Origin: Candidatus Poribacteria bacterium
GTDB lineage: Bacteria > Poribacteria > WGA-4E > WGA-3G
Reading direction: 5' to 3'
DNA: 64,000 bases
Assembly: GCA_963422705.1 (NCBI GenBank)
Contig: OY730443.1
Span: 2,270,694-2,334,693, forward strand
The translations under genes and the position numbers were made by a program. Below are positions 32,702 to 49,502 of this stretch, piece after piece. The notes below the pieces were generated by a model. That model was given only the letters and a program-made list of their open reading frames with translations, did no database searches and was not told where the DNA came from. How positions within the stretch are numbered: position 1 is the stretch's first letter; each line of letters starts with the position of its first letter.

Positions 32702-35700
32702 ATGTCACATCATAAACCTCCTTTTAAGTCCAACATACGCGATAACCACTCCCGCGGAACTGTCGGAAACTTCCTCGACAACGAAATTAAAAAAGGTTCT
32801 AAACTCTCAATCGTCTCCGCATACTTTACAATTTACGCCTTCAATGCACTCAAAGATAGACTGAACGGAATCTCGGAACTCCGATTTCTGTTAGGGCAAC
32901 CCGACTTTATCACCGGTATGTCCCCAGGTGAATCCCAAGAAAAAGCCTTCCATATTCTAGACAGCGGCTTGCACCTTAACCAGCAGCTCCAACAAAAATC
33001 AGTCGCCAACGCATGTGCACAATGGATAAAAGAGAAGGTAGAAATCAAGAGCGCACGGCAATCAAATCTACTCCATGGCAAGATGTATTATATTGAAACC
33101 AACGGTGCGCAAAAAGCGATTATGGGGAGCTCCAATTTTACCGTGCACGGACTCGGACTGAGCCCACGGGCAAATAATATTGAACTCAATTTTGTCGTCG
33201 ATAATGACACCGACAGACAAGAAATCAAAAAATGGTTTGATGATATCTGGAACGAAAAAAAATTGTCACAGATGTTAAGGAAGATGTACTCGCCGAACTC
33301 AACCGGCTCGGAAAAGATTACGCCCCTGAGTTCATCTATTTTAAGACACTCTATGAACTGTTCAGGGATGAAATCGAATCAAGAAGAGATGGCGAACAGC
33401 AACTAGAAGATATGCATCTGTATGATACCCAGATTTGGGACGCGTTATATGGCTTTCAGAAGGACGGCGCCAAAAGCGTCATCGCCCGCCTTTTAAGACA
33501 CAACGGATGCATTTTGGCCGATAGCGTCGGACTCGGCAAAACTTATACTGCACTCGCCGTTATCAAATTTTTTGAACTGAGAAATGAGCGCATCCTTGTT
33601 TTATGCCCAAAAAAACTCAACAACAACTGGGGTAAATATTTAGCGCATACCGCCCAAAAGGACAACCCTTTTCCTAACGATAGGTTCGGTTATACCCTCT
33701 TATCACATACAGACCTTTCCCGTAGCAGCGGCAAAGCCGGCGATATTAACCTGGAAAATTTCAACTGGCGCAATTTTGATATGGTGCTAATTGACGAATC
33801 GCACAACTTCCGAAACGATACGAAACCTATCCGGGATGACGCAGGCAATATCATCCGGCATAGCCGATATACACGCCTCTTGCATGAAATTATCAAGGCA
33901 GGCACAAAAACGAAAGTACTCATGCTTTCCGCAACGCCCGTTAACACATCACTCATTGACCTCCGCAATCAAATTTACCTCATCACAGAGCAGCGCGAGG
34001 ACGCCTTCAACGACAGTTTGGGCATCCAGAACATCGGAACACTGCTACGACAGGCGCAAACGGAATTTAAAGCATGGGAGGAAAAAGAACCTAAACAGGG
34101 AAAAAGAGATAAATCAGAACTATTAAAAACATTGGGCACCGATTTTTTTACATTGCTGGGGGGCATCTCTATTGCACGGGCGCGACGCCATATTGAGAAG
34201 TTTTATGCCGACGAAATACACCGAATCGGGCCATTTCCAAAACAACTCAAACCCGAGAATTGCCACCCTAAGACGGACTTGGAAGGGAAACTTTCTTATG
34301 AAGATTTAACGGTGCTAATCGAGGACTTCTCATTATCTATCTATCGCCCTTCTAGTTACGTCATCAGTGAAACCGCGAAAAAACGGTTGGAACAGGAAAA
34401 AAAGAGATACCGTTTTAATCAGGTGGACAGGGAACGATTTCTTATCGGTATGATGCGGACGAATTTTCTCAAGCGCTTGGAAAGCTCCGCACACTCCCTC
34501 ACAAAAACGCTTGAACGGACAATCGGAAAAATTGATGATATGGTGGAGAGGATAGAACGATTCGAAAAAAAACGCGACAGCCTCCATACACACGCTGATA
34601 TACTGCCCGATGATGACGATGATGATGATGATTTTTTCGTCAATCGCGCACGCAACCCCTATCACCTACGAGAACTGGATTGCACACGATGGAAAATAGA
34701 ACTTAGAAAGGATAAAGAGAGCTTAACCGCAGCATTGAGCAAAGTCAACGTCATCACACCCGAACGGGATGGAAAACTCAAGCAAATCAAGGCACAGATT
34801 AAAGAAAAAGCACAATACTCAACGGTTGATAAGGACGGAAAAGTTAACCGGAAATTGCTAGTTTTCACGACGTTCAAAGATACTGCACTCTATCTTTATC
34901 AAAATCTCGAACCGCTTGCATCGAAACTCGGTATCAACACCGGATTCGTTGCCGGGACGGAAACGCGTACCACTTACGGCAAAAATAATTTTGACGCTAT
35001 CCTCGCCAATTTCGCCCCCCTGGCGCAGAAACGGGGAAAGAACATAAAAGACGAGGCAGAGGACACAAAAGAAGAAATCGATTTACTCATCGCTACCGAC
35101 TGCATCTCCGAAGGACAAAATCTACAGGACTGCGACACTGTATTGAACTATGACATCCACTGGAACCCAGTGCGTATCATACAACGGTTTGGGCGCATCG
35201 ACAGAATCGGAAGCCGAAATACCGCCGTACGGATGATTAACTACTGGCCCACCGAAGATATGGAAGTCTACCTCCGGTTGCAAAGCCGCGTCGAATCACG
35301 AATGGCGCTCGCTGATACAGTCGCCAGTGGCGACGACGACGTGCTCAATGAAATTACTTACGAACAAGCACAAATGGAACTCAACTTCCGGGAACAGCAA
35401 TTGCAGCAATTGCGCCAAGAGGTTCTCGACTTGGATGACATCTCCGATGGCGTCGTCATGAGCGATTTTACCCTCGATTATTTCTTCGTGCAATTGTTGA
35501 AGTATCTCGAAAAAAATAGGGAACAACTAGAAACTACACCGAAAGGGGCATACGCCATCACCGAAAACAGGGATAACCCTTTGGAAACCGACGTCATCTT
35601 TTTTCTCCGACAAATCAATGCAACGACGGATAAATACGCCAAAGTCGCAAGCCCAATTCATCCCTATTCCGCTGTTTACATTCGTGGTAACGGCGACATT

Positions 35701-36015
35701 CAATACGGATGCGCAAACGCAAAACAGGCACTGGAGCTCTTTGAAGCCCACGCTGTGGGTAATGACAAACCGCTGCGAAAACTGTGTCGCCAATTTGAGA
35801 AAGAGACGCAAAATGGCAAAGATATGGAACGTTACAACAAGCTGTTGAAAACGGTTATCGCGCACATCACCAAGACACATACAACCACACAGATAAAAAA
35901 TATGGGAATTCATGGCACCCGCAGCTTTAAACTGACACCCGCGTCTCAAAAACCGAAAGATGATAACGATTTTGAACTGGTAACGTGGCTCATTATTACA
36001 AAACCACTCTCATAA
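32702..36015 (+). CDS. PLD-like (HKD) nuclease domain fused to SNF2-family helicase, interrupted by a frameshift in an A8 tract
   Basis: Segment 1 (32702-33406) carries a single HKD-type motif LHGKMYYIETNGAQKAIMGSSNFT. The reading frame continues without stops in the +2 frame from the A8 run (33255-33262) into segment 2 (33412-36015). Segment 2 has SNF2 motifs I (ADSVGLGKT), II (LIDESHNF), III (LSATPVNT) and VI (QRFGRIDRIGS). Together they would give a ~1100-aa fusion protein. Confidence 0.8.
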
Positions 36016-36051
36016 AACCAATGCCAAAAACAGCGCAAAAATAGGAACATC

Positions 36052-36393
36052 ATGGCACATAAAAATCAATTATTTGAAAGTCGAACCGAATTTATCGCCA
36101 CACGCGGCGTTAAGGAATACCGCGAGACAATACCCACCTGGGTAACTGCAGACGATGTCGTCTTGGAAATCGGATGCGAATGGGGGACAACCACAACTGG
36201 ATACTATCGCACTCCTCACATCGTATTCAACCGTCATGCGCCCCGAGGCAATCATCGTGAAAAGCGGCGCTTTAAAACGGTTTGTCTCACACTGCACCGC
36301 TTGGCGTTCCGCCCAAAAGCAATAACAGGTGACATCAGCAATTTCTTCACCTTCCCAAATCTAAATCGGATACCCACAGCTACACCCCAATGA
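36052..36393 (+). pseudogene. Small SAM-MTase-fold gene, copy with ~200-bp internal deletion
   Basis: The first 49 codons are identical to the intact 156-aa copy at 40193-40663. After ...GTTTT the sequence jumps to the 3' portion of the gene in another frame. Confidence 0.7.
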
Positions 36394-39300
36394 ACAAAGA
36401 ACACATCAGAAACGCACTCGCCGACATCCCCACAGGCACTCTTGTCCAAACCGCAAAAGCCCTCCTCGCGACGTTGGGATACCGCAGCGAGCGGAACCTG
36501 GAACTCTCCGGAACCGTGGACGACTTTATCGAGAATTTCCCCACACGGGGACAAGAGGACAAAAAAGAACCTACCAAAACCGAACAGACATTTTGTAACA
36601 CCGTTGAATCCATCTATGTCGTCTTTCAAATCACAGAAAATGAAGTCAATCCTCAAGCCCAACAGACAGTTGATTTTGCTGAAAAAAGTCTCGCCGAAAG
36701 TTTCTGCTTTTTCGCCGCCGATTTGAAAGAGAAGCCCACATCCCGCAGCCGCTACGCCGAATTGACACGCGAAATCAATAAGCGGCTCTCTATCCCGGCG
36801 GTGGCGCTCTTTCGCACCGGGAACCGGTTGACAATTGGGGTTGCAGGACGCCGGCAACACCGCCGGAAATCGGGGCGCGATGTCATAGAACGGGTGACGC
36901 TCATCAAGGACATTCGCCTCGAAAATCCGCACCGGGCACACCTTGATATCTTGGCAGAACTCGCCCTCGGAGAATGCATGCAATGGATGGATGCCCACAA
37001 AAAACAGAGAAGCTTTGACGAACTCCTCGACACCTGGCTCGCTAAACTCGACACTGAAGAACTCAATAAGCAGTTCTACCGGAGGTTATTCGCATGGTTT
37101 GAATGGGCAATCTCCGAGGCGACGTTCCCAAAAAACGAAAAGAAAATCTTAAAGCCCGAAGAACACGTGATACGACTCATCACACGCATCCTGTTTATCT
37201 GGTTCTTGAAGGAGCAGGGACTGGTTGCCGATGCACTTTTCAATCAAACACAAATCCCTTCCCTTCTAAAAGATGACGATTTCGATAACGGAAGCTCCTA
37301 CTATCGGGCCGTGCTACAAAATCTGTTTTTTGCTACACTGAACACCGAGATAAAGCAACGCGGTTTTAGCAGCAATACACCTACCGGGCATCGCGACTTC
37401 TCGCGTTACCGCTACGCAGCGGAAATACGCGCCCCTGAGAAACTGGTGGAACTCTTCGCGCAAACCCCCTTTGTCAATGGGGGACTGTTTGAGTGTCTCG
37501 ATAGCGAGGAAGCAGCGATGCACGGCGGATACCGCATCGACTGTTTCTCTGATAAACACGGCAAAAAATTGTGCTTCCCCAACCGCCTCTTTTTTGATAA
37601 ACACTGTGGACTCTTCCCCCTCCTCAATCACTACAAATTCACCATAGAAGAGAATATCCCGGTAGAACAAGAAGTCGCCTTGGAACCAGAATTGCTCGGG
37701 AAGGTGTTTGAAAACCTGCTGGCGGCTTACAATCCGGAGACGGGTACGACGGCGCGTAAAGGGACAGGCTCCTACTACACGCCGCGCGTCGTCGTCGACT
37801 ATATGATAGACGAGATAGTGGTTGCAACCCTGGTAGAAAAGTGTCAGCCGTCCGATGGGGACGCGACACTCTGGGAAGAACGCCTGCGCTACCTATTGGA
37901 TTATGGGCAGACGTTTGACGATGCAAATGAATGGTTTGATGCCCCGGAAACCGACGCGATTGTGCGCACAATTTCGGAGCTGAAAATTCTGGAACCGGCC
38001 GTCGGTTCCGGGGCTTTTCCGCGCGCGATGCTCCGAAAACTCACGCTTGCCCTCCGCCGACTCGATTCGGCAAATCAACGATGGCAGCAGCTGCAAAGAA
38101 GACGCGCCGCACAGAGAGCGGAAGATGCCTTTGAAACCGACGATGACGAAGCGCGACGCGAAGAACTCATTGAAATTGATGAGACGTTCAGACGTTACCG
38201 GGATTCCGACTTCGGCAGGAAGTTATACCTCATTCAGAATAACCTTTTCGGGGTGGACATCCAACCCATAGCCTGCCAAATTACCAAGCTCCGCTTCTTT
38301 ATCTCCCTCGCTATTGAGCAGAAACCGGCGCGGCATCTCGATAATTTCGGGTTCAAACCACTCCCAAACCTCGAGACGCGGTTTCTTGCCGCGAATACCC
38401 TTGTCCGGCTGCAAGGGCAACCCGAATTCGTAACAGTCCATATCCAAGCGTTAGAGCGGCAACTCCGCGAGAATCGCGAACGGCACTTCCACGCCACCAC
38501 CCGTCAGCAAAAGCTTGACTGTATTAGCAACGACAAAGCCATCCGCACAGAATTAGCCGCGGCATTAGAGGAACTCGGTTTCTTTGCACGGGACGCCCAA
38601 AACATCGCGCACTGGAACCCTTACCAGCAGAACGAGAATGCCGACTGGTTCGAACCGGAATGGATGTTCGGGATTAACGACGGGTTTGATATCGTGATGG
38701 GGAACCCGCCATATATTTCAGTTACGAAGATTCCTGCCCCGTTGAGGGATTACCTATTCGAAAACTATCAAACCTGTATAAAGAGAACAGATATCTATAT
38801 CGCGTTCCTCGAAAGAGCCCTTTCCATTCTACAGCCGAACGGGATGATGTGTTTTATTCTCTCGTCGGCGTTTGCGAAACAGAAATATGGCGAAAAGATG
38901 CGCAGACGCCTCATAGAAAATCACGCCATCCGCGACATTGTGGATGCGAGCCGTTATCGGATTTTTGAGAATGCGGCAGTACATAACATCGTTTTGCTGG
39001 TAGGCAATCAAAAAACAGATGTCGAAACGCGAATCCGATTGCATACCAGCAACGCGGATTTTGAGACACCGGGTGAGTGCGCATTTTCTATCAAGCAAGA
39101 CGATTTTGCGGAACTGAAAGATGCCCGCCTTGAAACCGCTCCGAATATTCGTGAAAGTCTCAGGGTGAAAAAGAGGATATGGGAGCGCGCGGTGCGTTTC
39201 GATAAGATTTGCCTTGTCGCTTACGGCGCCAGGCTCAATTCCCCTTTAGCGGGAAAAAGAAAACAGGATTACATCAGCGAAGCCCGTCTTGCAGGGCGCA

Positions 39301-39890
39301 AACGGTTTTGTGAAGGAAGAGACATTCGGCGTTATACGTTTTCTCAAACCGGATGGTTACGCTACTCGCCGAATGAACACTACAACCCGATGTTTCCAGA
39401 ACTTTTTGAAACCGAAAAGTTGATGTTTGCCCGTATTGTGAATGAGCGGTTGCGATTTGCTTATGACGCCGAACGGTTCTACAATTGCAATACGGTTATA
39501 AACTGTGTTCGCTTAGATTTACTTTCCGGTGCCTCCCATATCACCGCCCGCCGCGCAACGCAATCTGCTGATAACAAATTCGCGAAGCGGTATGATTACA
39601 AATTTCTGTTGGGCGCTTTAAATTCTGGTGTCACAAATTGGTATTTCCGCAGTTTCTTAAGCACAGGTTTAGATTGTTACCCGGATGATGTAAAAGAGTT
39701 GCCTATCCCAAAAATGTCGCGTCAGCAGCAACAACCGATTATTGGGTTGACATCTCAAATTCTCGCGGCGAAAGCGAGGGATTCGGAGGCGGACGTCTCC
39801 GCTCTTGAAGCGGAGATTGACAGGCTGCTCTGCGCTTTCTACAAGCTTACCGCGGAGGAGATGCGTATCCTGGAGCATGGGCGGGGATGA
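36390..39890 (+). CDS. Eco57I/PglX/DrmMI-like gamma-class N6-adenine DNA methyltransferase with C-terminal TaqI_C-type target-recognition region (paralog 1 of 3)
   Basis: 1166 aa. Motif X GSYYTP, motif I ILEPAVGSGAFP, motif IV GNPPYI. The C-terminal tail LPIPKMSRQQQQPIIG...EIDRLLCAFYKLTAEEMRILE matches the conserved end of Type IIG/PglX enzymes. No PD-(D/E)xK motif was recognised in the long N-terminal domain. Confidence 0.85.
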   Translation: MNKEHIRNALADIPTGTLVQTAKALLATLGYRSERNLELSGTVDDFIENFPTRGQEDKKEPTKTEQTFCNTVESIYVVFQITENEVNPQAQQTVDFAEKSLAESFCFFAADLKEKPTSRSRYAELTREINKRLSIPAVALFRTGNRLTIGVAGRRQHRRKSGRDVIERVTLIKDIRLENPHRAHLDILAELALGECMQWMDAHKKQRSFDELLDTWLAKLDTEELNKQFYRRLFAWFEWAISEATFPKNEKKILKPEEHVIRLITRILFIWFLKEQGLVADALFNQTQIPSLLKDDDFDNGSSYYRAVLQNLFFATLNTEIKQRGFSSNTPTGHRDFSRYRYAAEIRAPEKLVELFAQTPFVNGGLFECLDSEEAAMHGGYRIDCFSDKHGKKLCFPNRLFFDKHCGLFPLLNHYKFTIEENIPVEQEVALEPELLGKVFENLLAAYNPETGTTARKGTGSYYTPRVVVDYMIDEIVVATLVEKCQPSDGDATLWEERLRYLLDYGQTFDDANEWFDAPETDAIVRTISELKILEPAVGSGAFPRAMLRKLTLALRRLDSANQRWQQLQRRRAAQRAEDAFETDDDEARREELIEIDETFRRYRDSDFGRKLYLIQNNLFGVDIQPIACQITKLRFFISLAIEQKPARHLDNFGFKPLPNLETRFLAANTLVRLQGQPEFVTVHIQALERQLRENRERHFHATTRQQKLDCISNDKAIRTELAAALEELGFFARDAQNIAHWNPYQQNENADWFEPEWMFGINDGFDIVMGNPPYISVTKIPAPLRDYLFENYQTCIKRTDIYIAFLERALSILQPNGMMCFILSSAFAKQKYGEKMRRRLIENHAIRDIVDASRYRIFENAAVHNIVLLVGNQKTDVETRIRLHTSNADFETPGECAFSIKQDDFAELKDARLETAPNIRESLRVKKRIWERAVRFDKICLVAYGARLNSPLAGKRKQDYISEARLAGRKRFCEGRDIRRYTFSQTGWLRYSPNEHYNPMFPELFETEKLMFARIVNERLRFAYDAERFYNCNTVINCVRLDLLSGASHITARRATQSADNKFAKRYDYKFLLGALNSGVTNWYFRSFLSTGLDCYPDDVKELPIPKMSRQQQQPIIGLTSQILAAKARDSEADVSALEAEIDRLLCAFYKLTAEEMRILEHGRG

Positions 39891-39930
39891 ATTCTCTGAA
39901 TTTCTGGTTATCGGGTTTCTAATCACATTA

Positions 39931-40192
39931 AAAATAAGGAACAACTAGAAGCTACACCGAAAGGGGCATACGCCATCACCGAAAACAGGGATAACCCTTT
40001 GGAAACCGACGTCATCTTTTTTCTCCGACACAGATAAAAAATATGGGAATTCATGGCACGCGCAGCTTTAAACTGACACCCGCGTTTCAAAAACCGAAAG
40101 ATGATAACGATTTTGAACTGGTAACGTGGCTCATTATTACAAAACCACCCTCATAAAACCAATGCCAAAAACAGCGCAAAAATAGGAACATC
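39931..40192 (+). other. Rearranged partial duplicate of the SNF2 helicase 3' coding end (junction relic of repeat unit 2)
   Basis: Matches 35516-35612 and 35878-36050 with the intervening ~270 bp deleted. Confidence 0.8.
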
Positions 40193-40663
40193 ATGGCACA
40201 TAAAAATCAATTATTTGAAGGTCGAACCGAATTTATCGCCACGCGCGGCGTTAAGGAATACCGCGAGACAATACCCACCTGGGTAACTGCAGACGATGTC
40301 GTCTTGGAAATCGGATGCGAATGGGGGACAACCACAACACTAATCGCCCCGCACTGCCAGAAAGTCATCGCGACTGATATCAGCACCAAATGTATTCACC
40401 GTGCACGAGAAATGTACCCTCAACTTCAATTTGAACTGCTTGACGGTTTTGATATCAGGGCAGCGCTTGAACTTGGTGAACCGTTTAGCAAAATCTACAT
40501 CGATATTTCGGGGCTGTCAGGCTACAACTCACTGCTGGATACTATCGCACTCCTCACATCGTATGCAACCGTCATGCGCCCCGAGGCAATCATCGTGAAA
40601 AGCGGCGCTTTAAAACGGTTTGTCTCACACTGCACCGCTTGGCGTTCCGCCCAAAAGCAATAA
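40193..40663 (+). CDS. Small class-I SAM-dependent methyltransferase-fold protein (156 aa)
   Basis: Motif I-like VLEIGCEWGTTT, acidic beta-2 end VIATDIS, then LQFELLDGFD and IYIDIS. A minimal Rossmann MTase core; function unknown. Confidence 0.4.
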   Translation: MAHKNQLFEGRTEFIATRGVKEYRETIPTWVTADDVVLEIGCEWGTTTTLIAPHCQKVIATDISTKCIHRAREMYPQLQFELLDGFDIRAALELGEPFSKIYIDISGLSGYNSLLDTIALLTSYATVMRPEAIIVKSGALKRFVSHCTAWRSAQKQ

Positions 40664-40727
40664 CAGGTGACATCAGCAATTTCTTCACCTTCCCAAATCT
40701 AAGTCGGATACCTACAGCTACACCCCA

Positions 40728-43700
40728 ATGAACAAAGAACACATCAGAAACGCACTCGCCGACATCCCAACAGGCAATCTTGTCCAAACCGCAAAAGCCC
40801 TCCTCGCGACGATGGGATACCGCAGCGAGCGGAACCTGGAACTCTCCGGAACCGTGGACGACTTTATCGAGAATTTCCCCACACGGGGACAAGAGGACAA
40901 AAAAGAACCTACCAAAACCGAACAGACATTTCGTAACACCGTTGAATCCATCTATGTCGTCTTTCAAATCACAGAAAATGAAATCAATCCTCAAGCCCAA
41001 CAGACAGTTGATTTTGCTGAAAAAAGTCTCGCCGAAAGTTTCTGCTTTTTCGCCGCCGATTTGAAAGAGAAGCCTACCTCCCGCAGCCGCTACGCCGAAT
41101 TGACACGGGAAATCAATAAGCGACTCTCTATCCCGGCGGTGGTGCTCTTTCGCACCGGGAACCGGTTGACAATTGGGGTTGCAGGACGCCGGCAACACCG
41201 CCGGAAATCGGGGCGCGATGTCATAGAACGGGTGACGCTCATCAAGGACATTCGCCTCGAAAATCCGCACCGGGCACACCTTGATATCTTGGCAGAACTC
41301 GCCCTCGGAGAATGCATGCAATGGATGGATGCCCACAAAAAACAGAGAAGCTTTGACGAACTCCTCGACACCTGGCTCGCTAAACTCGACACTGAAGAAC
41401 TCAATAAGCAGTTCTACCGGAGGTTATTCGCATGGTTTGAATGGGCAATCTCCGAGGCGACGTTCCCAAAAAACGAAAAGAAAATCTTAAAGCCCGAAGA
41501 ACACGTGATACGACTCATCACACGCATCCTGTTTATCTGGTTCTTGAAGGAGCAGGGACTGGTTGCCGATGCACTTTTCAATCAAACACAAATCCCTTCC
41601 CTTCTAAAAGATGACGATTTCGATAACGGAAGCTCCTACTATCGGGCCGTGCTACAAAATCTGTTTTTTGCTACACTGAACACCGAGATAAAGCAACGCG
41701 GTTTTAGCAGCAATACACCTACCGGGCATCGCGACTTCTCGCGTTACCGCTACGCAGCGGAAATACGCGCCCCTGAGAAACTGGTGGAACTCTTCGCGCA
41801 AACCCCCTTTGTCAATGGGGGACTGTTTGAGTGTCTCGATAGCGAGGAAGCAGCGATGCACGGCGGATACCGCATCGACTGTTTCTCTGATAAACACGGC
41901 AAAAAATTGTGCTTCCCCAACCGCCTCTTTTTTGATAAACACTGTGGACTCTTCCCCCTCCTCAATCACTACAAATTCACCATAGAAGAGAATATCCCGG
42001 TAGAACAAGAAGTCGCCTTGGAACCAGAATTGCTCGGGAAGGTGTTTGAAAACCTGCTGGCGGCTTACAATCCGGAGACGGGTACGACGGCGCGTAAAGG
42101 GACAGGCTCCTACTACACGCCGCGCGTCGTCGTCGACTATATGATAGACGAGATAGTGGTTGCAACCCTGGTAGAAAAGTGTCAGCCGTCCGATGGGGAC
42201 GCGACACTCTGGGAAGAACGCCTGCGCTACCTATTGGATTATGGGCAGACGTTTGACGATGCAAATGAATGGTTTGATGCCCCGGAAACCGACGCGATTG
42301 TGCGCACAATTTCGGAGCTGAAAATTCTGGAACCGGCCGTCGGTTCCGGGGCTTTTCCGCTCGCGATGCTCCGAAAACTCACGCTTGCCCTCCGCCGACT
42401 CGATTCGGCAAATCAACGATGGCAGCAGCTGCAAAGAAGACGCGCCGCACAGAGAGCGGAAGATGCCTTTGAAACCGACGATGACGAAGCGCGACGCGAA
42501 GAACTCATTGAAATTGATGAGACGTTCAGACGTTACCGGGATTCCGACTTCGGCAGGAAGTTATACCTCATTCAGAATAACCTTTTCGGGGTGGACATCC
42601 AACCCATAGCCTGCCAAATTACCAAGCTCCGCTTCTTTATCTCCCTCGCTATTGAGCAGAAACCGGCGCGGCATCTCGATAATTTCGGGTTCAAACCACT
42701 CCCAAACCTCGAGACGCGGTTTCTTGCCGCGAATACCCTTGTCCGGCTGCAAGGGCAACCCGAATTCGTAACAGTCCATATCCAAGCGTTAGAGCGGCAA
42801 CTCCGCGAGAATCGCGAACGGCACTTCCACGCCACCACCCGTCAGCAAAAGCTTGACTGTATTAGCAACGACAAAGCCATCCGCACAGAATTAGCCGCGG
42901 CATTAGAGGAACTCGGTTTCTTTGCACGGGACGCCCAAAACATCGCGCACTGGAACCCTTACCAGCAGAACGAGAATGCCGACTGGTTCGAACCGGAATG
43001 GATGTTCGGGATTAACGACGGGTTTGATATCGTGATGGGGAACCCGCCATATATTTCAGTTACGAAGATTCCTGCCCCGTTGAGGGATTACCTATTCGAA
43101 AACTATCAAACCTGTATAAAGAGAACAGATATCTATATCGCGTTCCTCGAAAGAGCCCTCTCCATTCTACAGCCGAACGGGATGATGTGTTTTATTCTCT
43201 CGTCGGCGTTTGCGAAACAGAAATATGGCGAAAAGATGCGCAGACGCCTCATAGAAAATCACGCCATCCGCGACATTGTGGATGCAAGCCGTTATCGGAT
43301 TTTTGAGAATGCGGCAGTACATAACATCGTTTTGCTGGTAGGCAATCAAAAAACAGATGTCGAAACGCGAATCCGATTGCATACCAGCAACGCGGATTTT
43401 GAGACACCGGGTGAGTGCGCATTTTCTATCAAGCAAGACGATTTTGCGGAACTGAAAGATGCCCGCCTTGAAACCGCTCCGAATATTCGTGAAAGTCTCA
43501 GGGTGAAAAAGAGGATATGGGAGCGCGCGGTGCGTTTCGATAAGATTTGCCTTGTCGCTTACGGCGCCAGGCTCAATTCCCCTTCAGCGGGAAAAAGAAA
43601 ACAGGATTACATCAGCGATGTCCGTCTTCCACGAGGTAAACGGTTTTGTGAAGGAAGAGACATTCGGCGTTATACGTTTTCTCAAACCGGATGGTTACGC

Positions 43701-44228
43701 TACTCGCCGAATGAACACTACAACTCGATGTTTCCAGAACTTTTTGAAACCGAAAAGTTGATGTTTCTCGGGATTGTAAAAGAGGGGTTGCGATGTGCTT
43801 ATGACGCCGAACGGTTCTACAATTGCAGCACGGTTATAAACTGTGTTCGCTTAGATTTACTTTCCGGTGCCTCTCATATCACAGCCCGCCGCGCAACGCA
43901 ATCTGCTGATAACAAATTCGTGAAGCGGTATGATTACAAATTTCTGTTGGGCGTTTTAAATTCTGGCGTCACAAATTGGTATTTCCGCAGCTTTTTAAGC
44001 GAGGGGTTACATTGTCACCCAAATGATGTAAAAGAGTTGCCTATTCCAAAAATGCCGCGCCAGCAGCAGCAACCGATTATTGGGTTGACATCTCACATTC
44101 TCGCGGCGAAAGCGGAGGATTCGGAGGCGGACGTCTCCGCTCTTGAAGCGGAGATTGACAGGCTGCTCTGCGCTTTCTACAACTTTACGCCGGAGGAGAT
44201 GCGTATCCTGGAGTGTAGGTGGGGATAA
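40728..44228 (+). CDS. Eco57I/PglX/DrmMI-like N6-adenine DNA methyltransferase (paralog 2, TRD variant)
   Basis: 1166 aa with the same motifs as paralog 1. Near-identical to paralog 1 except for clustered substitutions in the C-terminal ~250 aa (DVRLPRG, LGIVKEGLRC, SEGLHCHPND, YNFTPEEMRILECRWG). Confidence 0.85.
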   Translation: MNKEHIRNALADIPTGNLVQTAKALLATMGYRSERNLELSGTVDDFIENFPTRGQEDKKEPTKTEQTFRNTVESIYVVFQITENEINPQAQQTVDFAEKSLAESFCFFAADLKEKPTSRSRYAELTREINKRLSIPAVVLFRTGNRLTIGVAGRRQHRRKSGRDVIERVTLIKDIRLENPHRAHLDILAELALGECMQWMDAHKKQRSFDELLDTWLAKLDTEELNKQFYRRLFAWFEWAISEATFPKNEKKILKPEEHVIRLITRILFIWFLKEQGLVADALFNQTQIPSLLKDDDFDNGSSYYRAVLQNLFFATLNTEIKQRGFSSNTPTGHRDFSRYRYAAEIRAPEKLVELFAQTPFVNGGLFECLDSEEAAMHGGYRIDCFSDKHGKKLCFPNRLFFDKHCGLFPLLNHYKFTIEENIPVEQEVALEPELLGKVFENLLAAYNPETGTTARKGTGSYYTPRVVVDYMIDEIVVATLVEKCQPSDGDATLWEERLRYLLDYGQTFDDANEWFDAPETDAIVRTISELKILEPAVGSGAFPLAMLRKLTLALRRLDSANQRWQQLQRRRAAQRAEDAFETDDDEARREELIEIDETFRRYRDSDFGRKLYLIQNNLFGVDIQPIACQITKLRFFISLAIEQKPARHLDNFGFKPLPNLETRFLAANTLVRLQGQPEFVTVHIQALERQLRENRERHFHATTRQQKLDCISNDKAIRTELAAALEELGFFARDAQNIAHWNPYQQNENADWFEPEWMFGINDGFDIVMGNPPYISVTKIPAPLRDYLFENYQTCIKRTDIYIAFLERALSILQPNGMMCFILSSAFAKQKYGEKMRRRLIENHAIRDIVDASRYRIFENAAVHNIVLLVGNQKTDVETRIRLHTSNADFETPGECAFSIKQDDFAELKDARLETAPNIRESLRVKKRIWERAVRFDKICLVAYGARLNSPSAGKRKQDYISDVRLPRGKRFCEGRDIRRYTFSQTGWLRYSPNEHYNSMFPELFETEKLMFLGIVKEGLRCAYDAERFYNCSTVINCVRLDLLSGASHITARRATQSADNKFVKRYDYKFLLGVLNSGVTNWYFRSFLSEGLHCHPNDVKELPIPKMPRQQQQPIIGLTSHILAAKAEDSEADVSALEAEIDRLLCAFYNFTPEEMRILECRWG

Positions 44229-44268
44229 ATTCTCTGAATTTCTGGTTATCGGGTTTCTAATCGCATTG

Positions 44269-47200
44269 TGAAACGCGGGGTAACAAATTTTTTGTATGCG
44301 TGCATAAAAACTCGGTAAAAGATTAGCGGGACTACTATGTGAAAAGCGGCGCTTTAAAACTGTTTGTCTCACACTGCAATCTAAGTCGGATACCCACAGC
44401 TACACCCCAATGAACAAAGAACACATCAGAAACGCACTCGCCGACATCCCCACAGGCACTCTTGTCCAAACCGCAAAAGCCCTCCTCGCGACGTTGGGAT
44501 ACCGCAGCGAGCGGAACCTGGAACTCTCCGGAACCGTGGACGACTTTATCGAGAATTTCCCCACACGGGGACAAGAGGACAAAAAAGAACCTACTAAAAC
44601 CGAACAGACATTTCGTAACACCGTTGAATCCATCTATGTCGTCTTTCAAATCACAGAAAATGAAGTCAATCCTCAAGCCCAACAGACAGTTGATTTTGCT
44701 GAAAAAAGTCTCGCCGAAAGTTTCTGCTTTTTCGCCGCCGATTTGAAAGAGAAGCCCACATCCCGCAGCCGCTACGCCGAATTGACACGCGAAATCAATA
44801 AGCGGCTCTCTATCCCGGCGGTGGCGCTCTTTCGCACCGGGAACCGGTTGACAATTGGGTTTGCAGGACGCCGGCAACACCGCCGGAAATCGGGGCTCGA
44901 TGTCATAGAACGGGTGACGCTCATCAAGGACATTCGCCTCGAAAATCCGCACCGCGCACACCTTGATATCTTGGCAGAACTCGCCCTGGGAGAATGCCTG
45001 CAATGGATGGATGCCCACAAAAAACAGAGAAACTTTGACGGACTCCTCGACACCTGGTTCGCTAAACTCGACACCGAAGAACTCAATAAGCAGTTCTACC
45101 GGAGGTTATTCGCATGGTTTGAATGGGCAATCTCCGAGGCGACGTTCCCAAAAAACGAAAAGAAAATCTTAAAGCCAGAAGAACACGTGATACGATTCAT
45201 TACACGCATCCTGTTTATCTGGTTCTTGAAGGAGCAGGGACTGGTTGCCGACGCACTTTTCAATCAAACACAAATCCCTTCCCTTCTAAAAGATGACGAT
45301 TTCGATAACGGAAGCTCCTACTATCGGGCCGTGCTACAAAATCTGTTTTTCGCTACACTGAACACCGAGATAACGCGGCGCGGTTTTAGCAGCAATACAC
45401 CTACCGGGCATCGCGACTTCTCGCGTTACCGCTACGCAGCGGAGATACGCGCCCCTGAGAAACTGTTGGAACTCTTCGCGCAAACCCCCTTTGTCAATGG
45501 CGGACTGTTTGAGTGTCTCGATAGCGAGGAGGCAGCGATGCACGGCGGATACCGCATCGACTGTTTCTCTGATAAACACGGCAAAAAATTGTGCTTCCCC
45601 AACCGTCTCTTTTTTGATAAACACCGCGGACTCTTCCCCCTCCTCAATCACTACAAATTCACCATAGAAGAGAATACCCCGGTAGAACAAGAAGTCGCCT
45701 TGGAACCAGAATTGCTCGGGAAGGTGTTTGAAAACCTGCTGGCGGCTTACAACCCGGAAACGGGTACGACGGCGCGTAAAGGGACAGGCTCCTACTACAC
45801 GCCGCGCGTCATCGTCGACTATATGATAGACGAGATAGTGGTTGCAACCCTGGTAGAAAAGTGTCAGCCGTCCGATGGGGACGCGACACTCTGGGAAGAA
45901 CGCCTTCGCTACCTATTGGATTATGGGCAGACGTTTGACGATGCAAATGAATGGTTTGATGCACCGGAAACTGACGCGATTGTGCGCACAATTTCGGAGC
46001 TGAAAATTCTGGAACCGGCCGTCGGTTCCGGGGCTTTTCCGCGCGCGATGCTCCGAAAACTCACGCTTGCCCTCCGCCGACTCGATTCGGCAAATCAACG
46101 ATGGCAGCAGCTGCAAAGGAGACGCGCCGCACAGAGAGCAGAAGATGCCTTTGAAACCGACGATGACGAAGCGCGACGCGAAGAACTCATTGAAATTGAT
46201 GAGACGTTCAGACGTTACCGGGATTCCGACTTCGGCAGGAAGTTATACCTCATTCAGAATAACCTTTTCGGGGTGGACATCCAACCCATAGCCTGCCAAA
46301 TTACCAAGCTCCGCTTCTTTATCTCCCTCGCTATTGAGCAGAAACCGGCGCGGCATCTCGATAATTTCGGGTTCAAACCGCTCCCAAACCTCGAGACGCG
46401 GTTTCTTGCCGCGAATACCCTCGTCGGGCTGCAAGGGCAACCCGAATTAGTAACAGTCCATGTCCAAGCGTTAGAGCGGCAACTCCGCGAGAATCGCGAA
46501 CGGCACTTCCACGCCACCACCCGTCAGCAAAAGCTTGACTGTATTAGCAACGACAAAGCCATCCGCACAGAATTAGCCGCGGCATTAGAGGAACTCGGGT
46601 TCTCTGCACGTAACGCCGAAAACATCGCGCACTGGAACCCTTACGAGCAGAACGAGAACGCCGACTGGTTCGAACCGGAATGGATGTTCGGGATTAACGA
46701 TGGTTTTGATATCGTGATGGGGAACCCGCCATATATTTCAGTTACGAAGATTCCTGCCCCGTTGAGGGATTACCTATTCGAAAACTATCAAACCTGTATC
46801 AGGAGAACAGATATCTATATCGCGTTCCTCGAAAGAGCCCTCTCCATTCTACAGCCGAACGGGATGATGTGTTTTATTCTCTCGTCGGCGTTTGCGAAAC
46901 AGAAATATGGCGAAAAGATGCGCAGACGCCTCATAGAAAATCACGCCATCCGCGACATTGTGGATGCAAGCCGTTATCGGATTTTTGAGAATGCGGCAGT
47001 ACATAACATCGTTTTGCTGGTAGGCAATCAAAAAACAGATGTCGAAACGCAAATCCGATTGCATACCAGCAACGCGGATTTTGAGACACCGGGTGAATGC
47101 GCATTTTCTATCAAGCAAGACGTTTTTGCGGAACTGAAAGATGCCCGCCTTGAAACCGCTCCGAATATTCGTGAAAGTCTCAGGGTGAAAAAGAGGATAT

Positions 47201-47950
47201 GGGAGCGCGCGGTGCGTTTCGATAAGATTTGCCTTGTCGCTTACGGCGCCAGGCTCAATTCCCCTTCAGCGGGAAAAAGAAAACAGGATTACATCAGCGA
47301 AGCCCGTCTTGCAGGGCGCAAACGGTTTTGTGAAGGAAGAGACATTCGGCGTTATACGTTTTCTCAAACCGGATGGTTACGCTACTCGCCGAATGAACAC
47401 TACAACCCGATGTTTCCAGAACTTTTTGAAACCGAAAAGTTGATGTTTACCTGTATTGTGAATGAGCGGTTGCGATTTGCTTATGACGCCGAACGGTTCT
47501 ACAATTCCCACACGGTTATAAACTGTGTTCGCTTAGATTTACTTTCCGGTGCCTCCCATATCACCGCCCGCCGCGCAACGCAATCTGCTGATAACAAATT
47601 CGCGAAGCGGTATGATTACAAATTTCTGTTGGGCGTTTTAAATTCTGGCGTCACAAATTGGTATTTCCGCAGTTTCTTAAGCACAGGTTTAAATTGTTAC
47701 CCGGATGATGTAAAAGAGTTGCCTATCCCAAAAATGTCGCGCCAGCAGCAACAACCGATTATTGGGTTGACATCTCAAATTCTCGCGGCGAAAGCGGAGG
47801 ATTCGGAGGCGGACGTCTCCGCTCTTGAAGCGGAGATTGACAGGCTGCTCTGCGCTTTCTACAAGCTTACCGCGGAGGAGATGAGTATCCTGGAGCATGG
47901 GCGGGGATGAATTCTCTGAATTTCTGGTTATCAGGTTTCTAATCACATTG
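44269..47950 (+). repeat. Tandem repeat unit 3 (~3.7 kb)
   Basis: Only the last ~35 bp of the small gene remain upstream of paralog 3. Confidence 0.8.
44410..47910 (+). CDS. Eco57I/PglX/DrmMI-like N6-adenine DNA methyltransferase (paralog 3)
   Basis: 1166 aa and overall the most divergent copy, with substitutions scattered along its length. Its TRD patches resemble paralog 1. Confidence 0.85.
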   Translation: MNKEHIRNALADIPTGTLVQTAKALLATLGYRSERNLELSGTVDDFIENFPTRGQEDKKEPTKTEQTFRNTVESIYVVFQITENEVNPQAQQTVDFAEKSLAESFCFFAADLKEKPTSRSRYAELTREINKRLSIPAVALFRTGNRLTIGFAGRRQHRRKSGLDVIERVTLIKDIRLENPHRAHLDILAELALGECLQWMDAHKKQRNFDGLLDTWFAKLDTEELNKQFYRRLFAWFEWAISEATFPKNEKKILKPEEHVIRFITRILFIWFLKEQGLVADALFNQTQIPSLLKDDDFDNGSSYYRAVLQNLFFATLNTEITRRGFSSNTPTGHRDFSRYRYAAEIRAPEKLLELFAQTPFVNGGLFECLDSEEAAMHGGYRIDCFSDKHGKKLCFPNRLFFDKHRGLFPLLNHYKFTIEENTPVEQEVALEPELLGKVFENLLAAYNPETGTTARKGTGSYYTPRVIVDYMIDEIVVATLVEKCQPSDGDATLWEERLRYLLDYGQTFDDANEWFDAPETDAIVRTISELKILEPAVGSGAFPRAMLRKLTLALRRLDSANQRWQQLQRRRAAQRAEDAFETDDDEARREELIEIDETFRRYRDSDFGRKLYLIQNNLFGVDIQPIACQITKLRFFISLAIEQKPARHLDNFGFKPLPNLETRFLAANTLVGLQGQPELVTVHVQALERQLRENRERHFHATTRQQKLDCISNDKAIRTELAAALEELGFSARNAENIAHWNPYEQNENADWFEPEWMFGINDGFDIVMGNPPYISVTKIPAPLRDYLFENYQTCIRRTDIYIAFLERALSILQPNGMMCFILSSAFAKQKYGEKMRRRLIENHAIRDIVDASRYRIFENAAVHNIVLLVGNQKTDVETQIRLHTSNADFETPGECAFSIKQDVFAELKDARLETAPNIRESLRVKKRIWERAVRFDKICLVAYGARLNSPSAGKRKQDYISEARLAGRKRFCEGRDIRRYTFSQTGWLRYSPNEHYNPMFPELFETEKLMFTCIVNERLRFAYDAERFYNSHTVINCVRLDLLSGASHITARRATQSADNKFAKRYDYKFLLGVLNSGVTNWYFRSFLSTGLNCYPDDVKELPIPKMSRQQQQPIIGLTSQILAAKAEDSEADVSALEAEIDRLLCAFYKLTAEEMSILEHGRG

Positions 47951-48072
47951 TGAATGGTTTTTTGGTACCTGATACCCTTCTTTTCTGTGTTGCGTTCAGA
48001 TGGCAATACCTCCCAAAAAGTTGTATATAACCGACATCCCCGGGTGTTGCACATCTAAAAGGAGTGTTTACA

Positions 48073-48954
48073 ATGTTAAAAGACTTATTTTCCAACCGCC
48101 TTTTTATCAGTGTGTTAGGACTCTTTATCTTCTGCGTTGTCGGCAGCCTGCTTTACATGCAGCATGTCGAGAAGCAACGAAAGCAGGAGGTGGCGGAGGC
48201 GCATGAACGCATCAACCAGTGGAATGCGTCTCGGGCGACATCCTCGCCCCCAACTGATACCGCGCAAGGCGGACACTTGCACGATGGCGCGGGACACGCC
48301 GAACCACATGCAGACACGAGCGTTTCACAGCGTTCCGAGGCGGAAAAAAAACCCGATGCGGAAGACATTGATTCTAAACGTGGTGTCTTGACAGAGGAGC
48401 AACGTACGGGATATCTCAAATATTTGGAAGAGCTGGGGCTGGAACCGCCGCCGAAAGGCTACAACTACGAATGGGATGCCGAGGGGAATGTCTCGCTCTA
48501 TGAGTATAATGTCCCGACGTTTGAAACGACATGGTCCGAAGAGTCTGAGCCTGGACGGGATTTTTACAAACTCACAGACGACGAATGGAGGCGGTATAGA
48601 GCCTTAGGGCATATCATCTCTCAAACCCCACTCCGAATTGAAGGAGAAGACTTAAAGCGGCTAGCTCGGGGAGAGCCGACACCAAAGGTGAACTACGCGC
48701 CCGGCGTTGTTGAGCTCGCGGAAGAGTGGCGAGATGAACTGTGGCAGAAAACCGCAGGCCCCAGCCCCAGTGTGTCTACCAGTGTCACTTGGAATAGAGA
48801 GCCCACTGAAAAAGAACTCAAAGACATAGCACGCCGGGAATATGAGTTACTCAAGGCGATGGAAAAACCGGAACGTCCGTCTCCGGGCCCTTGGGATGAA
48901 AACTTTATTGATGCCCTCGTCAAAGAACTTGGAGCAGAAGTACAAAGCAGATAA
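48073..48954 (+). CDS. Hypothetical membrane-anchored protein
   Basis: RBS AAAGGAG lies 8 nt upstream of the ATG at 48073. N-terminal TM helix and an acidic, Pro-rich extracytoplasmic region. Confidence 0.5.
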   Translation: MLKDLFSNRLFISVLGLFIFCVVGSLLYMQHVEKQRKQEVAEAHERINQWNASRATSSPPTDTAQGGHLHDGAGHAEPHADTSVSQRSEAEKKPDAEDIDSKRGVLTEEQRTGYLKYLEELGLEPPPKGYNYEWDAEGNVSLYEYNVPTFETTWSEESEPGRDFYKLTDDEWRRYRALGHIISQTPLRIEGEDLKRLARGEPTPKVNYAPGVVELAEEWRDELWQKTAGPSPSVSTSVTWNREPTEKELKDIARREYELLKAMEKPERPSPGPWDENFIDALVKELGAEVQSR

Positions 48955-49257: not shown

Positions 49258-49502
49258 AGAAAGGCAGAAATCTTATTCTTTTGGGCTACCTACGACGCCT
49301 GTCTTCCACGAAGTAAACGGTTTTGTGAAGGAAAATGCATTGCGCGCTGTGCCCGTTTGTTACGGTAGTCAGATGCTTCGCGAAAACAGGGACATCCGTC
49401 CAACGTGAGATGCTGTCAGTCGGCGCGCATCGACATCAGAGCAAAGATTCGCAAGTTAGGCGGTGCCCGGCGGTTGAGCATCCGGTATTGCATGGCGAAA
49501 AA

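Follow-up and report, generated by a model that had tools for sequence, protein, structure and literature searches.

Introduction

The described systems that come closest to the locus reported here are class 1 DISARM, BREX, MANTIS/BR type-2 (Gao_RL; MtsA to MtsD), the Type IIG/IIL enzymes, Type ISP and Type III restriction-modification (RM), and Azaca (ZacABC). The locus is chromosomal, lying on the 4.0-Mb contig OY730443.1 of a Candidatus Poribacteria bacterium (GCA_963422705.1), and occupies positions 32702 to 47950 of a 64,000-nucleotide stretch that is referred to here as the window (contig positions 2,270,694 to 2,334,693). It encodes a PLD nuclease, an SNF2-family ATPase, and three 1166-amino-acid (aa) N6-adenine methylases. 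The original prediction, made from the sequence alone, had read it as a PLD-SNF2 fusion accompanied by a small methyltransferase-fold protein and three tandem PglX/DrmMI-like methylase paralogs. Here, the locus is compared with known systems and with the best 80 of at least 584 methylase relatives, which were obtained in a survey of one genome per species and come almost entirely from sponge-associated metagenome-assembled genomes.

Class 1 DISARM shares three kinds of protein with the locus: an SNF2 helicase, a PLD nuclease, and an N6-adenine methylase of the Eco57I-like type. However, its defining pair, DrmA and DrmB, is absent here and from the conserved neighbors of the 80 related loci, and PLD and SNF2 form one protein in the module described below, unlike in class 1 DISARM. 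PADLOC profiles for DrmD, DrmC, and DrmMI matched at 4e-34, 3.5e-5, and 1e-13 (48 bits), respectively, and the NCBIfam DrmD models scored below threshold, at 140 bits versus a cut-off of 610 (NF038317) and 102 versus 950 (NF038318). For BREX, neither PglZ nor BrxC/PglY was found in the window or among the conserved neighbors of the 80 loci. The NCBIfam PglX model NF033452 scored 78 bits versus a cut-off of 500, and the BREX-2, -5, and -6 PglX models scored 34 to 49 versus cut-offs of 400 to 900.

MANTIS also uses an N6-adenine methylase for site recognition and self-marking, and its MtsD carries an N-terminal HKD/PLD nuclease fused to a superfamily 2 (SF2) ATPase, as do the relatives of the window locus and its restored reading frame. 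MtsD functions as a dimer that has a single PLD site, and MANTIS is expected to hemimethylate asymmetric sites (PMC12839542; bioRxiv 10.64898/2026.09.23.753747). MANTIS differs in having a DUF499 AAA+ ATPase (MtsA) and a DUF3780 protein (MtsB), neither of which is present in or near the locus or conserved in the related loci; the small open reading frames (ORFs) of the locus match class-I methyltransferase models or nothing, with no match to DUF3780. In sequence comparisons with the PDB, the motor matched eukaryotic Snf2/CHD1L, Rad54-like proteins, and RapA, and not SauUSI, whereas MtsD has been described as SauUSI-like. Its score against the NCBIfam model phospholipD_antiphage, which presumably stands for effectors of the MtsD kind, was 122 bits versus a cut-off of 1100. 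The methylase also differs from that of MANTIS, being a 1166-aa MmeI/Eco57I-like protein with a DUF4391-like N terminus.

The Type IIG/IIL enzymes (MmeI, DrdV, Eco57I, and Cj0031) share with the methylases a helical spacer, a gamma-class N6-adenine methyltransferase, a C-terminal recognition domain, and the swapping of recognition domains. Unlike these enzymes, the methylases lack a conserved PD-(D/E)xK domain, and a distinct nuclease-motor gene is usually in close linkage with theirs. The likeness to Type ISP (LlaGI/LlaBIII) and Type III systems is in functional logic only, in that a nuclease, an SF2 motor, and a methylase-recognition module are combined. In those systems, the methylase-recognition module gives specificity for both reactions, and the loss of either half is survivable. 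The module described here has two genes rather than the one polypeptide of Type ISP, and it differs from both types in having an HKD rather than an Mrr or PD-(D/E)xK nuclease, an SNF2-family motor, and a gamma-class methylase rather than a beta-class Mod. Azaca resembles the locus in combining a PLD nuclease with an SNF2-like helicase, and the PADLOC matches to ZacB (8.8e-9) and ZacC (2.4e-22) were weak and partial. Azaca has no methylase, and its PLD and helicase are separate proteins alongside ZacA. Judged by gene and domain content, the locus is therefore not a member of DISARM, BREX, BR-type-2/MANTIS, Type III, or ISP.

Two previous studies have recorded related genes. An HKD+Snf2 family (C3a139), occasionally adjacent to type III CRISPR loci, was cataloged by Shah et al. 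2019 (PMC6546367), and Milman et al. 2023 (PMC9881135, Table 3) reported programmed inversion in Type II RM genes that have a PLD+SNF gene next to them.

Results and discussion

The locus carries a conserved two-gene module

With a probability of about 0.6, we interpret the locus as one representative of an ATP-dependent, RM-like module of two genes that is widespread but unnamed and is related to DISARM, MANTIS/BR-type-2, and Type ISP/III. Gene 1 of this module is normally one protein of ~1095 aa, in which an SNF2-family ATPase is preceded by a fused, N-terminal HKD/PLD nuclease that has a single HKD motif. Gene 2 is, by its domain content, a ~1160-aa specificity-plus-modification subunit. 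In the window, these genes and their derivatives are arranged as follows.

32702..33406, + strand: PLD/HKD ORF, 234 aa (PLDc_2, 1.7e-11); its tail past 33262 is out of frame
33255..33262, + strand: A8 homopolymer, the -1 frameshift site between PLD and SNF2, located by alignment to fused homologs
33263..36015, + strand: SNF2-family ATPase part of the split gene (SNF2-rel_dom, ResIII, Helicase_C)
33412..36015, + strand: SNF2 ORF as listed, 867 aa, with ATG at 33412; homology already begins at the A run
35512..39929, + strand: repeat unit 1 (last 500 bp of SNF2, 113-aa ORF, methylase A), from self-BLAST
36052..36393, + strand: 113-aa ORF, a deletion/frameshift derivative of the small S-adenosylmethionine (SAM)-dependent methyltransferase gene; residues 1 to 49 match the 156-aa protein, followed by a frame change
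36390..39890, + strand: methylase copy A, 1166 aa (Eco57I, N6_Mtase, TaqI_C)
39930..44267, + strand: repeat unit 2 (SNF2 3'-end pseudogene fragments, 156-aa gene, methylase B), from self-BLAST
39930-40031 and 40028-40153, + strand: SNF2 3'-end pseudogene fragments inside the A-B spacer
40193..40663, + strand: 156-aa class-I SAM-dependent methyltransferase, between A and B (Methyltransf_25, 3e-6)
40728..44228, + strand: methylase copy B, 1166 aa (Eco57I, N6_Mtase, TaqI_C)
44339..47949, + strand: repeat unit 3 (shortened spacer, methylase C), from self-BLAST
44410..47910, + strand: methylase copy C, 1166 aa (Eco57I, N6_Mtase, TaqI_C)

A fused PLD-SNF2 gene was found upstream of the methylase gene, on the same strand, in 55 of the 80 related loci, and the gap between the two genes was <100 bp in 30 of 56 loci. 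Linked loci were present in Poribacteria (21/37), Chloroflexota (16/20), Latescibacterota (4/5), and Gammaproteobacteria (6/6), as well as in Binatia, Acidobacteriota, Rhodothermales, and a deltaproteobacterium, at least 8 phyla in all. The pair was also found on four IMG/VR contigs. When all neighboring ORFs of the 80 loci were clustered, no third conserved partner emerged, and the module is therefore regarded as one of two genes. This comparison of homologs and their neighborhoods, which the original prediction had suggested as a check, demonstrates that the pairing in the window is real, with strand and order conserved.

The genomic surroundings of the module were also recorded. In ~25 of the 80 loci, genes encoding FRG-domain or TIR-like N termini fused to long TPR arrays start 10 to 300 bp after the methylase gene (for example, L036:13740-15608, L015:13738-16368, and L002:17641-18324), which suggests a defense-island context in sponge symbionts. 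Single sponge-symbiont genomes contain 2 to 5 dispersed paralogs of the methylase family, many without an adjacent PLD-SNF2 gene (OY282381.1, with L003, L057, L058, and L070; OZ240244.1; OZ242335.1; OZ242351.1; OZ241379.1; and OZ241845.1).

The PLD-SNF2 gene of the window is split by a frameshift

The PLD and SNF2 parts lie in different reading frames in the window, and the 1096-aa fused homolog from L002 aligns in two frames, with the switch at 33259 to 33280. Residues 1 to 193 of the fused homolog align in the PLD frame, and the SNF2 part is 73% identical to L002 residues 187 to 1096. The addition of one A to the A8 run yielded an uninterrupted 1104-aa ORF in which the HKD motifs (H125xK and GSSN) and the SNF2 motifs (GLGKT, DESH, SAT, and QRFGRIDR) were all intact, the frameshift being the sole lesion in this frame. 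Nearly all of the 120 best homologs listed (8000 candidates were scored) are single PLD+SNF2 proteins of ~1085 to 1100 aa. The predicted fusion therefore holds for the relatives and for the restored frame, but the gene of the window itself is split by a -1 frameshift in A8. The only strong PADLOC match for the motor was the C3a139 'HKD+Snf2' profile, to which the SNF2 ORF aligned over profile positions 209 to 945 (9.2e-93) and the PLD ORF over positions 22 to 172.

An identical A8 run was present in L086, a Logan assembly of run ERR11641160 that is 100% identical to the window over 8.9 kb. This finding indicates that the frameshift is reproduced between assemblies and is no isolated error of one consensus sequence. 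We considered and rejected programmed -1 ribosomal frameshifting at A_AAA_AAA, since the downstream RNA fold is ordinary (z = -0.94) and homologs lack the poly-A tract; that the heptamer is in phase is the automatic outcome of an A9-to-A8 deletion. Slippage on the A run was kept only as a possible source of leaky expression. Because of the -1 frameshift in gene 1, the restriction arm would be off, or else leakily expressed by such slippage.

The methylase joins an MmeI-like enzyme to a probable DUF4391 domain

The 1166-aa methylases matched Eco57I (3.7e-35), N6_Mtase, and TaqI_C (3.8e-10), and the motifs YYTP, GSGAF, and NPPY were intact, in that order, in all three copies. As in Type IIG/IIL enzymes, a gamma-class N6-adenine methyltransferase and a C-terminal recognition domain are combined in one polypeptide; an N-terminal PD-(D/E)xK endonuclease with conserved catalytic residues, which belongs to the definition of that class, was not recognizable. 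From these comparisons, the predicted domain order is a DUF4391-like N-terminal domain, an MmeI-like helical spacer, the gamma-class N6-adenine methyltransferase, and a TaqI_C specificity domain. Among PADLOC profiles, the methylase scored 200 bits against REase_MTase_IIG (8.8e-60), 68 bits against PglX, and 48 bits against DrmMI. The proposed likeness to PglX and DrmMI is thus present, but it is exceeded by that to Type IIG/IIL enzymes. Since the PADLOC Type IIG profiles match it best, annotation pipelines are expected to label the methylase Type IIG.

Residues 1 to 210 of the methylase matched no Pfam family, nuclease, or MmeI_N, and residues 200 to 460 matched the MmeI helical spacer weakly. 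AlphaFold models of this region were confident, with predicted local distance difference test (pLDDT) values of 77.7 (residues 1 to 460) and 88.6 (residues 1 to 205). The helical part of the N-terminal model matched MmeI, PglX, and HsdM, and the alpha/beta domain matched ribokinase (6.5), DrdV (6.1), BpuSI (4.3), and restriction endonuclease-fold proteins (4.2 to 4.7). The window copies contain a possible E85...D111-L-K113 triad, and an E85...(D/E)111-x-K113 triad was found in 22 of 59 PLD-SNF2-linked homologs and in 3 of 25 solitary ones. The invariant N-terminal residues are Q80, E85, R119, R127, K131, and R154/R155. Because the triad is not conserved, the proteins did not prove to be ordinary Type IIG enzymes with a recognizable PD-(D/E)xK domain, one of two outcomes that the original prediction had named as contradicting it.

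A probable relationship of the N terminus to DUF4391 is indicated in part by plasmids. There were 118 plasmid homologs of PLD-SNF2, 111 of which cover at least 80% of the query, and the matches listed are ~39 to 40% identical. In all 7 plasmid records inspected (L084, L085, and L100 to L104, from Acinetobacter sp. NEB149, Listeria innocua, Acetobacter, Sulfitobacter, Desulforapulum, Methanomethylovorans, and Citrobacter), a standalone DUF4391 gene directly follows PLD-SNF2, and in 6 of the 7 the start of the DUF4391 gene overlaps or adjoins the end of the helicase gene. The next component is a Mod-like methylase gene, present in 7/7 either directly or after 1 to 2 genes, and a DEAD/DEAH-box helicase gene is annotated further on in 4/7. 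The plasmid cluster therefore resembles the locus in full-length PLD-SNF2 homology (~40% identity) and in having the DUF4391 module next. It differs in its standalone ~185- to 270-aa DUF4391 protein, its ~480- to 650-aa Mod-like methylase, and its additional Res-like helicase, whereas at the locus DUF4391 is fused to the methylase and there is no second helicase. The plasmid cluster spans bacteria and an archaeon, and no name for it was found in the searchable literature.

An hhalign comparison of 53 methylase N termini with the 7 plasmid DUF4391 proteins gave a P value of 2.3e-5 and a score of 40.4 over 101 columns, and 22 reversed and column-shuffled controls scored 10 to 21. Relatives retrieved by the window domain also matched Pfam DUF4391, namely, P0464 at 3.9e-6 (27.4 bits versus a cut-off of 29.9), P0416, and P0390. 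The domain relatives comprise 778 cluster representatives, and the domain is N terminal in nearly all of the 150 listed. In addition, a ~540-aa protein of L067 whose N terminus is homologous to that of the methylase matches Pfam DUF4391. These data make it very probable that the methylase N terminus is a DUF4391-family domain, a dedicated partner of this helicase family that is here fused to a methylase. Literature searches on DUF4391, and on Eco57I with SNF2 in sponge symbionts, returned nothing relevant; the domain was mentioned in just two papers, both on other subjects.

The ~540-aa protein of L067 (L067:6274-7893) and its counterpart in L068 (L068:6887-8536) are encoded directly after PLD-SNF2 and combine a DUF4391-like domain with a complete sigma-70 factor (regions 1.2, 2, 3, and 4). 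Similar fusions in L054 and L069 were deduced from tblastn matches, and the fusion recurs as P0373 and P0409.

The methylase array arose by amplification and gene conversion

Methylase copies A, B, and C share 96.9 to 98.2% DNA identity. Copy A is identical to copy B over the central ~2.3 kb and matches copy C at both ends, and we read this mosaic as the signature of gene conversion. Sequence identity at this level indicates that the three methylases are the product of recent tandem amplification and not diverged old paralogs. The amplified segment is ~4.4 kb long, starting 500 bp before the end of gene 1 and extending through gene 2; because the repeat unit starts within the SNF2 3' end, at 35512, SNF2 pseudogene fragments lie in the A-B spacer. 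The three predicted paralogs were thus confirmed as 1166-aa ORFs with Eco57I and TaqI_C domains, but they are recent duplicates, 97 to 98% identical and specific to this lineage.

The differences between copies are unevenly distributed. Copies A and B differ in 3 codons within residues 460 to 940 and in 40 codons (28 of them nonsynonymous) within residues 940 to 1166, and the substitutions unique to copy B are concentrated in the specificity domain. Beyond the recognition domain, synonymous changes between copies equal or outnumber nonsynonymous ones. Since the copies differ mainly in the recognition domain, their specificities may have begun to diverge.

The array was also compared with other assemblies. 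L001, an independent contig from another sample that is 99 to 100% identical to the window, has at least 3 to 4 tandem copies in which the alleles are reassorted, one combining the 5' part of A with the recognition domain of C and another combining the 5' part of B with the recognition domain of A. The L086 assembly breaks at the repeat boundary. With these two independent contigs, an assembly artifact as the source of the array was ruled out. L001 is ENA ERZ25070844 ctg7049_1x_c, a 14,452-bp contig with 1x coverage that consists of array units only and has both ends within methylase copies. In it, a methylase copy precedes a complete SNF2 3' fragment, and the array of that strain is therefore longer than that of the window or otherwise arranged.

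A diversity-generating retroelement or other targeted hypermutation of the recognition domain was also considered and rejected. No reverse-transcriptase domain was found in the locus or in the large window ORFs scanned. The substitutions between copies are of all types and are not adenine specific, and they form whole-gene mosaics, which points to gene conversion and argues against targeted hypermutation.

In a sister genome, the orthologous locus (L087) has 74 to 80% DNA identity to the window and the same flanks on both sides. It contains a fused, intact PLD-SNF2 gene and the small methyltransferase gene but only one methylase gene, so that the triplication is confined to the lineage of the window. 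In L087 (8566-12151), the methylase gene is itself split by a frameshift, with residues 1 to 288 and 302 to 1162 in different frames, the reverse of the situation in the window.

Another poribacterial locus, L041, has one PLD-SNF2 gene followed by three intact methylase genes. The products of these three share 54 to 64% identity across ~900 aa, but their recognition domains are unrelated. One motor with several specificity subunits is thus a recurring design. A further arrangement was observed in L046, L049, L059, L063, L067, L075, L077, and L082, in which an inverted partial recognition-domain cassette is accompanied by a tyrosine (phage-integrase-family) recombinase gene, in most cases downstream of the methylase, with inverted repeats of 150 to 190 nucleotides where a repeat search was run. 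These loci look like the specificity shufflon reported by Milman et al. 2023. Taken across the loci compared, diversification of the recognition domain appears as a trait of the family.

The small methyltransferase is probably a passenger

The small methyltransferase-fold protein of the original prediction was confirmed as a 156-aa class-I SAM-methyltransferase-fold ORF (40193 to 40663), but its assignment to the system was not sustained. Its family, of ~155-aa proteins, is widespread, with >1000 homologs at 65 to 88% identity, and is absent from the 80 related loci. The gene occupies the same position in L087 and stands in unrelated contexts in L088 and L089. These contexts, together with the absence from the related loci, make it unlikely to be a component of the system; most likely, it is a passenger gene that was caught in the amplified unit. 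Elsewhere, the family was observed next to a fragment of Transposase_20, in a group of small genes on the same strand (APH, acetyltransferase, and glyoxalase genes) that resembles a cassette array.

Proposed mechanism and alternative explanations

If the module works as its domains suggest, the methylase subunit would read a short asymmetric site and methylate one strand as the self mark, as is proposed by analogy with MmeI-like enzymes, PglX, and MtsC. PLD-SNF2, with one HKD motif per chain, would dimerize to form the active site, by analogy with BfiI and MtsD. At unmodified sites, the methylase would recruit or license the dimeric PLD-SNF2 through the DUF4391-like domain; the motor would then translocate on DNA, and the nuclease would cut. 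Such a mode of action would be similar in logic to those of Type III/ISP enzymes, class 1 DISARM, and, above all, BR-type-2/MANTIS. Restriction would thus depend on the methylase subunit, and this dependence would explain why a broken motor (in the window) and a broken methylase (in L087) are both tolerated. With three intact methylases and restriction off or leaky, the window locus may now be mostly a methylation locus.

Several observations weigh against this reading. In 25 of the 80 loci, the homologous methylase has no PLD-SNF2 within 10 kb, and at least 2 of those genomes carry one elsewhere. The window locus and its ortholog L087 each have a disrupted gene (PLD-SNF2 and the methylase, respectively), which fits decay as well as on/off switching, and A8 is short for a phase-variation tract. 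The DUF4391 link is one of remote homology, with an hhalign probability of 76% and Pfam matches below threshold. Finally, we infer restriction, methylation, the target site, and physical coupling from sequence for every member of the family.

The 1166-aa proteins might instead be self-contained Type IIG/IIL enzymes (similar to MmeI, Eco57I, and Cj0031) with a divergent N-terminal nuclease, and PLD-SNF2 might be an unrelated neighbor. The REase_MTase_IIG profiles as best PADLOC matches (8.8e-60), the E85...D111-L-K113 residues of the window copies, and the 25 solitary homologs among 80 would all agree with this, and Cj0031-type enzymes restrict phage unaided (PMC4889913). Nevertheless, it is unlikely given that order, strand, and adjacency are kept in 55/80 loci from at least 8 phyla and the gaps are very short, that 37 of 59 linked homologs and 22 of 25 solitary ones do not have the triad, that no Pfam nuclease or MmeI_N match was found, and that the N terminus appears homologous to DUF4391, the dedicated plasmid neighbor of the same helicase family. 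It is also rather improbable that the locus is a decaying remnant without current function, in which a frameshift killed the system and the array and gene fragments are neutral products of unequal crossing-over. Such decay would account for the frameshifted PLD-SNF2 gene, the SNF2 pseudogene fragments and truncated 113-aa gene in the spacers, the frameshifted methylase of the sister locus L087, and the variation of copy number and allele combinations between samples. It does not sit well with three intact 3.5-kb methylase ORFs in which every catalytic motif is present, with synonymous changes equaling or outnumbering nonsynonymous ones outside the recognition domain, with the frameshift as the one lesion in a 1104-aa frame that is intact otherwise, or with L041, where a multi-methylase array behind one PLD-SNF2 gene recurs with diverged and intact genes.

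A third account, in which an SNF2 remodeler-like ATPase and site-specific adenine methylases, some with a sigma factor, serve epigenetic or transcriptional regulation rather than immunity and amplification alters the methylome, has a low probability in our estimate. The locus does occupy the same chromosomal site, by korAB, in three genomes (the window, L002, and L087), which suggests vertical retention; DUF4391-like/sigma-70 fusions do directly follow PLD-SNF2 (L067 and L068) and recur as P0373 and P0409; and restriction is apparently off here with three methylases intact. However, the motor carries a fused HKD nuclease in almost every homolog, and the recognition domains are swapped, recombinase shuffled, and multiplied, as in phase-variable RM systems. 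The scattering of the module over unrelated phyla, its plasmid relatives, and its presence on viral contigs and beside FRG/TIR-TPR genes likewise fit mobile defense genes. Finally, the domain content, equivalent to DrmD, DrmC, and DrmMI, and the weak profile matches to DrmD (4e-34), DrmC, DrmMI, and PglX would be compatible with a system of class 1 DISARM or BREX type that has the rest of its core genes elsewhere in the genome. This is very improbable: DrmA, DrmB, BrxC, PglZ, and DUF499 are absent from the 64-kb window, no such core gene is among the conserved neighbors of the 80 loci, and the NCBIfam scores are far below cut-offs (DrmD, 140 versus 610; PglX, 78 versus 500).

The two-gene RM-like module thus remains the preferred reading, and the central claim of the original prediction, that PLD, SNF2, and N6-adenine methylases occur here without a DISARM or BREX core, agrees with the window, in which no DrmA/DrmB or BrxC/PglZ/BrxL was found. 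The discovery of such core genes, the second outcome named as contradicting it, did not occur in the window or among conserved genes of the related loci. The module also falls outside curated families, since the NCBIfam scores for DrmD, PglX, and the PLD antiphage model are all far below cut-offs. The statement that it is not a described system holds in that it is unnamed, but it has to be qualified by the PLD+SNF genes beside Type II RM genes in Milman et al. 2023, by C3a139 in Shah et al. 2019, and by the HKD-helicase of MANTIS with its N6-methylase. The module is real, abundant, and unnamed, yet it has already been noticed in passing (Milman et al. 2023), and it falls in the known class of methylation-based motor-nuclease defenses. 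As far as our literature searches show, three points are new: the DUF4391 link that joins the two-gene module of sponge symbionts to the four-gene cluster of plasmids, the recurrence of multi-methylase arrays behind one motor, and the snapshot in the window of amplification and gene conversion with the nuclease apparently switched off.

If the module functions as proposed, it would be a minimal ATP-dependent RM-like defense of two proteins, compared with four to six in DISARM, BREX-related systems, and MANTIS. DUF4391 would gain the role of connecting a motor-nuclease to the partner that gives it specificity, and a large fraction of the abundant 'Eco57I-like methylase' and 'SNF2 helicase' genes in sponge-symbiont genomes would be accounted for. 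Intact homologs exist in loci of the L002, L004, and L041 types, which could be cloned directly. The window would then capture the evolution of RM specificity in progress, through amplification, gene conversion, and divergence of recognition domains while the toxic restriction arm is off. More tentatively, and with doubt outweighing belief, HKD-SNF2 motor-nucleases could be the hub of a family of uncharacterized immune systems in which DUF4391 is the universal coupling module, methylase arrays on one motor provide multispecific restriction, and amplification with gene conversion is an unrecognized route to new RM specificities. DUF4391 would in that case be fused to MmeI-like methylase subunits (at this locus and in hundreds of sponge-symbiont genomes) or to sigma-70 factors; on plasmids of Listeria, Acinetobacter, Citrobacter, and a methanogen, it would be a separate protein next to Type III-like Mod/Res. 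Amplification with gene conversion would act alongside recombinase-driven cassette inversion.

Flanking genes and other features of the window

The 5' flank of the locus contains two CBS-domain genes and the genes for both subunits of a 2-oxoacid:ferredoxin oxidoreductase. The korAB genes noted upstream in the original prediction are these subunits and thus encode a metabolic enzyme, not plasmid kor. On the 3' side, where the original prediction had placed small secreted proteins, lie a 296-aa ORF (48064-48954), which has a hydrophobic N terminus and no family match, an FNR-like reductase gene, and a DUF6807 gene. All ORFs of at least 450 aa elsewhere in the window encode housekeeping domains (symporter, ABC permease/ATPase, GH129, sulfatase, BamA, and TamB), and neither these nor the ORFs of the locus include DrmA/DrmB (DUF1998), BrxC, PglZ, BrxL, or DUF499. 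Promoter and terminator scans of the locus gave counts no higher than those of shuffled controls and were uninformative, and exact-sequence look-ups of P0001 and the SNF2 ORF returned no match. A 49-nucleotide stretch (49293-49341), 1.4 kb past copy C, is 86% identical to 43616-43664 (E value, 2e-9), the start of the coding region for the recognition domain of copy B; this stretch could be left over from an earlier copy or could match by chance.

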